Shown: piece by piece, positions 48,001-51,000 of the stretch | Layout: every line of letters starts with the position of its first letter | Position numbering within the stretch: the stretch's first letter is position 1 | Source of the DNA: Escherichia coli | GTDB taxonomy: Bacteria; Pseudomonadota; Gammaproteobacteria; Enterobacterales; Enterobacteriaceae | Reading direction: 5' to 3' (one strand) | NCBI RefSeq assembly: GCF_030013595.1 | Contig: NZ_CP122768.1 | DNA: 64,000 nt | Position numbers: made by a program

Positions 48001-51000
48001 GCAGAACTGATATAATATCTGACCGTCATTTCTCGCTCTTTCTTTTGTTCTGCTATTATTGACCGAAAGGAGACTGCCACGCATAATTTCTTCTGACCTT
48101 TCCATTCAAACGTGAAATCAATAAGTTCATCAGGGACATCGCAAACAATATGAAGACGGATTTCTTCTCTGCCGTGACTCTTTTCACTCATTGCGTAACT
48201 GTCATGCTCTGGATTATTTAATTCTTTCAGTGGGAATTTTTCCTCAAAGGCTTTATTTAGCCGACCCTGATTTCCTTTTACAGCGAATAAATAATCACCT
48301 CCCTGTTTTTGTATCTTCTCTGCAATATCTTTCTGGCAACCCATCGCATCAGTTGTGATGATTTTTCCTTTAATATCCAGCATGTTAAGAAGTTCAGGGA
48401 TAGCTGTAATTTCATTGGGTTTCTCATCCGTCCTGATCTGTCCGATGACCAGACTGTGCATTGTTGAGAACGCACTAATGACATGAATCGCTCCCTTGCG
48501 GCGACTCTTGTCATAAGGATGCCGGAGTGTTTTTCCATCAATTGCGATGACGTCTTTATCAGCTGAAGAATGGCAGTCACGCATCCAGTTAATAAAGCAC
48601 TCGTAAAATTTTGCAGGACTGATACAGGATACAACTCTGGCAATGGTATCGTTAACAGGAATACCATTTTCAAAATCACCATATTGCTTCAAAAAATCGA
48701 GATGTGTTTCCCCAAAATCCTCTATATCTTCCCAGCCTTCTGCACCAGAAATAACGGCATAAATAGTCAACAGTAGAATATCCGACAATTTATATTCCAC
48801 TTTCCAGGCTTGTCTGTAATCGGGGATAATAGAAATATGTTCCATCAATTTTTTAAGTTCCATTTTGTTCTCCTTAATTATGTAAGGAGTATTTGATCAT
48901 GTATACGCAATAAAAAACAGCTTTAGGTAATAAGGAATATATCAATTTTTAAACATAAAATGCGAATTGTCTAGTACAAAAAAGCAGCGTTACGTGATCT
49001 TTCCCTGGTTAATCATGGCTGAACACGATATTACGCCAGAAGTCACCATTTCCAAAACACAGCGCCGCTATAAAGTCGGCTATGTCAGAGCCCGCCACCA
49101 GGACCGCACAACCGGTATAGCCCGGTATTATTCACAACACCCCAGCCTGCACCTGAAGGGCGACTGGCTGAAAGAGGCCGGATTTGATACCGGACGGGGT
49201 GTCACGGTGAAGATTTCGGAGGGGTGCCTGACCATCATCGCTGACAGTGACGAGGTGCAGGAACTGCGGGAGGAACTTTATCAGGTTAAACAGGTGGTTA
49301 AGGGGATGCGGAACGGGATGTTTAGTATGCTGGACGAAAGCTAAATAATAAAAAAGCCGGGAAGATCTTATCTTTCCCGGCCATCTTGCCATACATTAAT
49401 TATTTATGAATATAATATAACTGAACATCATATTCATTATCACTTAAAACTATTAGTCGATCAGGAGATGTAAATGCTAATGAAAGATCATATGTTTCAT
49501 TTATCGAAAACAAACTCAATATGAAATTTGAAAAATTTTCGACATGAAGAGATATGCAAACATCTCCATTATAGAATATATTGCAAAGAATATCTTTTTT
49601 CACATTCAGTGTGCTTTCAACATCTCTCGCTAGATCATTAATATTTAAAGGTAAATTGAAAACTCTCCTTTCAATAATATTATCGGTTTTATTTATTGCC
49701 ATTAGCATTTCTCGATGCCACATGAAGTCATTCTTACGTAAGAATGATACATCAAAGGAAGTGACACCATTTAATTTAGAAGCATAATCTTTTGCTCTAA
49801 TTAAATTTAATTTATCTTCAAGGCTAATTTTCATAATATATATGATGATCCTTAGTTACAGGGTCATTGATCTACTGATATCTATCACTTTTGAAATCGT
49901 ATGTTCTAGGATCAGCGCCCGGTTTAGGTTGTCCTGCATGTGCGTGAGGGCCAGGAGCCCTAGGATCTGCCGTGTGCTCGACTACAACTTTCTTACGTCC
50001 GTAGGCATCCGTATATTCATAATATCGCCCATGAGACCCTAAATCTTCCGAATATTTATAATTTGTTTGTCCCCTTCTTCTAGGATCATTTCCAACTGTC
50101 CATTGCCTATTAGGTTGCTGTGAACGAGGTATGCCCGCAAGATCTTTTGCTTTATTTAGTGCCTGACGACGGTTTCTTAATTCACCACATTTCAGACCAA
50201 GCGGATCTATCCAGCTTGCTGGATTAGGCGCGTAAGCATACAGGTTCAGCCCGCCCGCCAGCCCTATCGGATCCGTTACCATGAACCGCCCGACATCCGG
50301 ATCATAGTACCTGTGCAGATTGTAGTGCAGCCCCGTTTCCCTGTCGAGGTACTGTCCCTGGTAGCGCAGGTTCTGCTCCACCCCGCCGTGGTCCTTCTCC
50401 TGTATCGTGTTACCCCAGACCTGATACCCCGTCTCCCACACGATTTTCCCGTCGCTGTCCGTCATCTCTTCCGGCGCGCCGTTCACATCCGTGTGAAAAT
50501 ACAGTATCCGGTTCGGGCCCTCTTTGCCCGCCTTATCCACCCGCGCCAGCGGTTCATAACTCCCCGGGTCCCTGTAGATGTACAGGCTGTCTGTTCCCTC
50601 CGGCCTGCTCTCCTGCGCCAGCCGCATTCCGTCCCATAAAAATTTTGTCCGGTTGTACGGTTTACCGTCAGGACTGATGTGCTGTTTTTCCGTCCGCCTC
50701 CCCAGCGCATCGTACACATACCGGTACGTCCCCCGCGCTGTCGTCACTTCCACCATCCGGTGTTCCGCATCATAACGGTAACTCTGCGTGCCGCTCCGCC
50801 CCTCCTTTTCCACCGCACGGCCAAATTCGTCGTAACGGTAGTGCACACCACGGTAAGACATCAGCCGGTTGAACGGCACCACGCTGTTTTCTGCCGTGGC
50901 CCTTTCCCCCGCGCGCCGCGCCAGCAGGTTTCCCGCCGCGTCGTACTGCCAGCTCGCCAGATACCCCTCATCCTCCGAGCGGCACGCCGTGATGCGCCCC

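Follow-up and report, generated by a model that had tools for sequence, protein, structure and literature searches.

An rhsE-type locus of Escherichia coli that probably retains an intact immunity gene beside a decayed Tox-HNH-EHHH Rhs toxin

The 64,000-nucleotide (nt) stretch of Escherichia coli DNA analyzed here (RefSeq contig NZ_CP122768.1; hereafter the window, to which all coordinates refer) contains an rhs module, read on the minus strand, that comprises genes for a VgrG spike protein, a chaperone, an Rhs protein with a C-terminal toxin tip, and a 144-amino acid (aa) protein. The VgrG gene, upstream of the Rhs gene, is a 664-aa open reading frame (ORF) at 55025..57019, and its syntenic counterpart in E. 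coli HCP5S3_I2 is annotated in RefSeq as 'type VI secretion system Vgr family protein'. It is followed by a 150-aa ORF (54522..54974) for a DcrB-related, Eag-type chaperone, the syntenic counterpart of which is the RefSeq 'DcrB-related protein' WP_000141612.1. The N-terminal part of the Rhs protein (51168..54503, 1111 codons up to a premature amber stop) was defined by Pfam and by its reading frame, and possesses a split PAAR motif, DUF6531, and many RHS repeats. The remaining Rhs core continues in the unchanged frame (50193..51167) to the DPLGL autocleavage motif encoded at 50193-50207. Beyond it lie the toxin tip as encoded, 106 codons (50192 down to 49875) of a 122-residue domain, and a second premature TAG codon (49872-49874). 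The 3' end of the toxin domain, now untranslated (INDPVTKDHHIYYEN plus the natural TAG stop; 49824..49871), runs into the start of the intact 144-aa gene (49400..49834), very probably the cognate immunity gene. The PAAR motif, RHS repeats, and Rhs core with DPLGL, with vgrG and the DcrB-related gene upstream, are arranged in the order seen in annotated genomes. The guanine plus cytosine (GC) content is 0.60-0.68 for the Rhs core and declines to 0.41-0.47 across the tip and to 0.24-0.31 across the 144-aa ORF, which is the usual signature of a putative swapped-in C-terminal toxin-immunity cassette. A first-pass annotation, made by reading the sequence alone, had described an Rhs C-terminal toxin tip after DPLGL and an AT-rich 144-aa ORF at 49400..49834; both are present as described, the tip with a sequence exactly as it was transcribed, and the identification of an Rhs C-terminal toxin tip was correct.

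Read from 54503, the Rhs frame encounters stops at codons 1112 and 1544 and its natural stop at codon 1560, with TAG in all three. The first (51168-51170, minus strand) replaces the CAG codon of Gln1112, the window having T at 51170 where the closely related HCP5S3_I2 locus has C, and it separates the PAAR/DUF6531/RHS-repeat part from the rest of the protein. Translation through this stop yields a continuous Rhs core (...RYYDPDVGRFMVTDPIGLAGGLNLYAYAPNPASWIDPLGL). Downstream, the minus-strand ORF 49872..51119 ends WIDPLGL, followed by a tip that begins KCGELRNRRQ and terminates in KSDRYQ before the second TAG. This second amber codon (49872..49874, minus strand) replaces the AAG codon of Lys1544, which is Lys107 of the tip, and cuts 16 residues from the end of the toxin domain (KINDPVTKDHHIYYEN), a segment whose DHHIYY motif includes an invariant His. 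The tip that the first-pass annotation had taken as complete is in fact a remnant truncated by 16 residues, and its Rhs gene has another nonsense codon besides. The rhs genes of E. coli VCSW7 and E. coli O169:H41 encode uninterrupted 1559-aa Rhs proteins that are colinear with the window, with Gln (CAG) at codon 1112 and Lys (AAG) at codon 1544. The uninterrupted frame from PAAR to toxin that these homologs possess is absent from the window, which has TAG at 51168-51170 instead of their CAG. AAG is likewise the corresponding codon in HCP5S3_I2 and in an orphan copy from E. coli strain 104; among these loci, TAG occurs only in the window copy. Neither amber codon was shared by any complete RefSeq E. 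coli genome. Each of the premature stops requires one base change (CAG to TAG and AAG to TAG) and, like the natural stop, is amber; the common amber identity of the three stops could be coincidence.

The closest relatives of the module, in E. coli HCP5S3_I2 and LCP30S3_I5, are 99.7% identical to it over 5 kb and have neither amber codon. They have instead a 1-bp deletion of their own at the position equivalent to window 49950, immediately ahead of the HxH codons, which frameshifts the toxin. With amber codons in the window and a separate deletion in its relatives, a minimum of two independent events have thus inactivated the toxin arm at this site. The immunity protein WP_000703398.1 is identical in broken and intact loci. 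In intact genes the end of the toxin overlaps the immunity ATG by 11 nt, an arrangement that suggests translational coupling. A separate feature emerged from comparison of the window Rhs protein with the intact Rhs of VCSW7: of 60 amino acid differences, 41 fall in residues 28-90 (54234-54422), a hydrophobic N-terminal segment, and the remaining approximately 1470 residues are approximately 99% identical. The clustering suggests that this segment may have been exchanged by recombination.

The tip, which the first-pass annotation had left without an assigned family, matches the Pfam family Tox-HNH-EHHH (PF15657) with E=7e-10 and 39.5 bits over model positions 2-59 of 69. The tip with its missing end restored matches with E=8.6e-10, and for the full-length orphan tip of E. 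coli strain 104 the match extends over model positions 2-69 of 69. A complete Tox-HNH-EHHH domain with the C-terminal His (DHHIYY) is thus found in intact relatives and is lacking in the window copy. An alignment of 22 homologs with 45-81% identity to the tip was used to assess conservation, and 22 of 22 diverse aligned homologs match PF15657. The catalytic-type motif of the tip consists of E72-H73 (49974-49979, minus strand) and H83-A-H85 (49938-49946, minus strand), of which H73, H83, and H85 are invariant. H117, in the segment lost from the window copy, is also invariant, and H116, I118, and Y120 are nearly so, on a level with H73, H83, and H85. The 851-bp segment comprising tip and immunity gene is present in 71 of 5426 complete E. 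coli genomes, and RefSeq already lists the short E. coli copies as 'HNH/endonuclease VII fold putative polymorphic toxin'. No match to the tip or to the immunity protein was found in NCBIfam, PADLOC, or PHROGs. By its sequence, then, the tip is a predicted Tox-HNH-EHHH nuclease-family toxin domain.

The only experimentally characterized member of Tox-HNH-EHHH is TseI, a type VI secretion system (T6SS) Rhs effector of Aeromonas dhakensis SSU, whose C-terminus degrades plasmid DNA and whose H1497A and HFH1507-1509AAA mutants lose activity and toxicity; its immunity protein TsiI neutralizes it by direct binding (Pei et al. 2020; PMC7170923). For comparison, tseI and tsiI were translated from the supplement of that paper (PMC7170923). 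E72-H73 and H83-x-H85 of the tip align with TseI H1497 and HFH1507-1509, with the same 10-residue spacing. The two systems are alike in belonging to one Pfam toxin family and in the [ED]H...HxH motif with identical spacing, in having an Rhs C-terminal tip released after DPxGL with vgrG and a chaperone gene upstream, and in an immunity gene that starts within the end of the toxin gene and encodes a protein of comparable size (154 aa for TsiI, 144 aa in the window). They differ in several respects. The TseI chaperone is TecI, of the DUF4123 type, whereas the window locus has a DcrB/Eag-type chaperone gene. The toxins are only distantly related: TseI scores 29 bits against a hidden Markov model (HMM) of the window toxin's subfamily, with its C-terminal third unaligned. 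The window copy is, moreover, truncated and interrupted, and the homology of the immunity proteins, discussed below, is suggestive only. Through PF15657 and TseI, the tip therefore belongs to a family with a Pfam model, a RefSeq name, and a characterized DNase member (PMC7170923), and this match to a well-characterized toxin domain overturns its description as unassigned. The earlier guess that the His-rich motif pointed to a metal-dependent nuclease was a good one and may well apply to the tip.

In the structural model of the tip, taken from a fused toxin-immunity chain predicted with AlphaFold2 (AF2), there are one N-terminal helix and five strands, and the canonical beta-beta-alpha-metal signature is not evident because no helix follows the His-bearing hairpin. 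When the PDB was searched by sequence, neither the tip nor its profile nor the immunity profile had a significant match. Matches to the influenza PA endonuclease (E=0.08) and to SSU72 (E=0.12) extended over only approximately 27-45 residues and were taken as chance. The former concerns tip residues 95-120 or thereabouts (49824-49910; consensus PRTYDFKxxRYxKI..DHHIYY), which resemble the viral enzyme over 27 residues with E=0.08-0.3. A Pfam match to Ntox47 (E=0.059) depended on the Rhs boundary residues and vanished for the tip alone, and was not used.

The 144-aa ORF is genuine: it encodes a protein identical to RefSeq WP_000703398.1, and homologs occur in 47 clusters at 50% identity. A word-indexed search with the protein recovered only 16 close clusters, whose members come from E. 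coli, Gilliamella, Pantoea alhagi, and metagenomes, and a HMMER profile scan of 1.84 billion representatives recovered the 47 clusters, which consist of proteins of approximately 140-160 aa. The protein has no Pfam match. AF2 with a 36-sequence alignment produced an alpha/beta model of four helices packed on a seven-strand sheet, with a predicted local distance difference test (pLDDT) score of 93.3 and a predicted template modeling (pTM) score of 0.85. In seven independent loci (L002, L003, L004, L010, L013, L014, and L016), a homolog with 30-44% identity to the window protein starts within or right after a full-length toxin of the same subfamily; these seven toxins align to the subfamily HMM over positions 2-119 of 120, and several form part of PAAR-Rhs proteins for which a PF15657 match had been precomputed. 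In two further loci (L007 and L008), the homolog is one of a group of orphan toxin and immunity genes located downstream of Rhs, beside known Imm families, and in the Gilliamella locus L012 it has no adjacent toxin. A profile search of genome contigs with a narrow alignment returned a single locus, an orphan immunity gene in Gilliamella. Because adjacency to one toxin subfamily is conserved in seven loci, the 144-aa protein is very probably the cognate immunity protein, and the candidate proposed from gene position in the first-pass annotation is well supported by this conserved gene order.

That the ORF is instead an unrelated AT-rich hitchhiker, as its lack of Pfam, NCBIfam, PADLOC, and PHROG matches and the absence of a confident toxin interface in the fused AF2 model might be taken to imply, is very improbable, as in seven loci the immunity gene keeps both its place beside a toxin of this subfamily and its start overlap with it despite immunity identities of only 25-53%, homologs also lie in orphan arrays downstream of Rhs genes beside known Imm families, and the protein is weakly but colinearly similar to the validated TsiI.

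Of the profile searches and structure predictions that had been proposed for the tip, Pfam supplied the name of its family, and co-folding with the 144-aa protein reached a pTM of 0.52. For the latter, an alignment of fused toxin-linker-immunity sequences was assembled from seven real pairs and single-domain homologs. Both domains of the fused model had pLDDT values above 90, with no confident interface, and no conclusion about the interface was drawn because the pTM of the whole was 0.52. Identity among the seven pairs is 62-93% for the toxin domains (mean 75%) and 25-53% for the immunity proteins (mean 33%), and the two sets of identities are uncorrelated (Spearman rho 0.22). In these pairs, immunity proteins diverge much faster than the toxins they must neutralize. 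During alignment, MAFFT placed the C-termini of three toxin homologs that bear signal peptides (...MSDNNGEHHIYY) onto the C-termini of immunity proteins (...LSDNEYDVQLYY), a resemblance that is probably due to chance.

Imm50 (PF15594) accompanies other Tox-HNH-EHHH toxins, and a kinship of the 144-aa protein with Imm50 was considered and rejected, there being no Pfam match even at E<=10 and an hhalign P value of 0.36. The two immunity types are found in the same loci. L014 contains a 95-aa Tox-HNH-EHHH fragment followed by an Imm50 gene (1320-1889) and a second Tox-HNH-EHHH toxin followed by a homolog of the 144-aa protein (2104-2947), and in L008 the Imm50 type and the 144-aa-homolog type stand side by side (3001-3991). 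One Pfam toxin family, Tox-HNH-EHHH, is served by two immunity families.

TsiI is a candidate relative. In an hmmsearch with the HMM of the 144-aa family it scores a weak 10.4 bits, in a colinear and nearly full-length alignment that ends in a shared ...vi.is.(D/N)EY motif. Only 7 of 20000 shuffled TsiI sequences reached the real score, and nine of nine TsiI relatives aligned in one register. Alignment of the TsiI profile with the immunity profile by hhalign gave P=6.5e-4 and a probability of 27% over 130 colinear columns. At the sequence level, homology between the 144-aa family and TsiI is suggestive, not proven.

Other modules also resemble that of the window. 'PAAR-RhsA-Tox-HNH-EHHH' candidates have been reported in Salmonella, for example as 1499-aa proteins of serovars Cubana, Havana, Senftenberg, and Tennessee (PMC10469887, PMC11669294, PMC13224477). 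They share the architecture of the window module and a domain-less immunity protein, and differ from it in being predicted only, in residing in VR3 of SPI-6, a pathogenicity island of Salmonella, and not at the E. coli rhsE site, and in that some members pair with Imm50. One of the seven paired loci, L003, encodes a 1499-aa PAAR-Rhs protein whose toxin and immunity proteins are 87% and 44% identical to those of the window; the S. Tennessee pair is like it in size and architecture, and L003 is probably a relative of, or the same as, the Salmonella 1499-aa modules. There are also orphan copies in other E. coli genomes, with tip and immunity DNA 98.9% identical to that of the window and a toxin domain of full length. 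The single orphan inspected, that of strain 104 (L002), has no Rhs body, retains approximately 60 nt of core upstream of DPLGL, and lies near ybfD/ybgA at an rhsC-type locus, whereas the window copy is joined to a (broken) Rhs gene at the rhsE site.

The neighborhood of the module is that of other rhsE-type loci. A hairpin followed by a U-run at 49350..49382 on the minus strand, 3' of the immunity gene, is the probable intrinsic terminator of the rhs-immunity operon (RNA fold -18.9 kcal/mol, z=-2.75, followed by UUUUUU). A simple consensus terminator scanner found no site 3' of the immunity gene; it missed the hairpin because of one internal mismatch. As the hairpin lies between the immunity gene and a convergent SymE-like gene (48967..49344, plus strand), it may terminate both. 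The SymE-like gene matches NCBIfam SymE with E=4e-13, under the curated cutoff, and RefSeq names it 'SymE family type I addiction module toxin'. A SymE neighbor was present at every E. coli rhsE-type locus inspected in RefSeq, and a SymE_toxin gene (2280-2624) also lies near the homologous module of the unrelated assembly L016. The rhs locus is bounded by an ISAs1-family (H-repeat) transposase gene (47727..48863, minus strand; NCBIfam transpos_ISAs1, E=4e-120; RefSeq name ydcC), after which come yddH-nhoA-yddE-narI. RefSeq annotates the identical gene order at the rhsE-type site of E. coli genomes.

We consider it likely that this is an rhsE-type locus with a decayed Tox-HNH-EHHH Rhs toxin and an intact cognate immunity gene. 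Two other readings, one of the nature of the toxin and one of the state of the locus, were weighed against this. The first holds that the tip lies outside the His-Me finger DNases and that, together with its immunity protein, it is distant kin of CdiA-CT/CdiI from E. coli A0 34/86 (PDB 5T86) and of Rhs2(Ntox47)/SciX of S. Typhimurium, pairs that have been described as BECR-fold, RNA-directed toxins blocked by active-site occlusion. A 2026 preprint identified 5T86 as the closest structure to Salmonella Rhs2(Ntox47)/SciX and called the toxin a BECR-fold enzyme, and a 2026 paper on S. Tennessee described a 1499-aa PAAR-Rhs protein with a 144-aa domain-less immunity protein that has the same weak match to 5T86. 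A literature search on the source strain of 5T86 found none. The similarity of these pairs to the window proteins is marginal and undetectable by sequence, and their toxins, described as BECR-fold and probably RNA-directed, stand in contrast to Tox-HNH-EHHH, which Pfam files under His-Me finger DNases. Because all scores are marginal and TseI is a demonstrated DNase, the 5T86 link is a low-probability lead, and we regard an affiliation of the tip outside the His-Me finger DNases as unlikely. It is equally doubtful that Tox-HNH-EHHH with the 144-aa family, 5T86 CdiA-CT/CdiI, and Rhs2(Ntox47)/SciX form one evolutionary module with TsiI as a further member. If they do, two Pfam toxin families, one of His-Me finger DNases and one of BECR RNases, would share one fold, and one of the annotations would be wrong.

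According to the second reading, the locus is functional, the TAG codons being sequencing or assembly errors or else subject to readthrough, as might occur with an amber suppressor, and a full PAAR-Rhs-Tox-HNH-EHHH effector is made and delivered. Sequencing error could indeed lie behind the two TAG codons, which counts against a decayed toxin; so do the origin of both premature stops as amber codons from single base changes, the in-frame state of the rest of the 4.7-kb gene and its 99.7% identity to a relative, and the perfect conservation of the toxin-domain 3' end past the second TAG, where 48 nt of DNA are identical to those of intact relatives. Two independent nonsense changes in one gene are, however, unlikely to be base-calling errors, and decay of the toxin arm recurs in HCP5S3_I2 and LCP30S3_I5 through an independent 1-bp deletion near the HxH codons. 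The perfect conservation of 48 nt would also be expected of a recent mutation, and part of this segment overlaps the start of the immunity gene. On balance, a functional effector at this locus seems improbable.

If it behaves as TseI and other T6SS Rhs effectors do, the intact 1559-aa Rhs protein would be loaded on VgrG through its PAAR domain. The encapsulating Rhs protein would cleave itself after DPLGL and free the 122-residue toxin, which, once injected into neighboring cells, might degrade nucleic acid through the E-H, H-x-H, and C-terminal His residues. The producer would be protected by direct binding of the immunity protein to the toxin. In the window copy, the toxin would not be made in a deliverable or active form, and the immunity gene with its hairpin and U-run terminator would be the remaining useful part. 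With a toxin arm that is probably dead and an untouched immunity gene, the locus most likely serves at present to protect against kin strains still firing the active toxin. The locus is most likely a retained immunity gene beside a toxin pseudogene.

For annotation, the value of these results is that the tip can be named as Tox-HNH-EHHH and the window copy as a pseudogene with two nonsense codons, and that the 144-aa protein can be described, very probably, as the immunity partner cognate to this toxin subfamily, in a family of approximately 47 clusters without a Pfam or NCBIfam model. The toxin family is known and named, the immunity family is catalogued but unnamed, and the window copy is a decaying example of an ordinary module. 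The sole wider point is the weak structural likeness of both partners to 5T86, which bears on whether Tox-HNH-EHHH is truly an HNH-type DNase family. Decay of the toxin arm with the immunity gene kept, together with a separate lesion in a sister lineage, agrees with the view that immunity genes persist longer than the toxins they neutralize.

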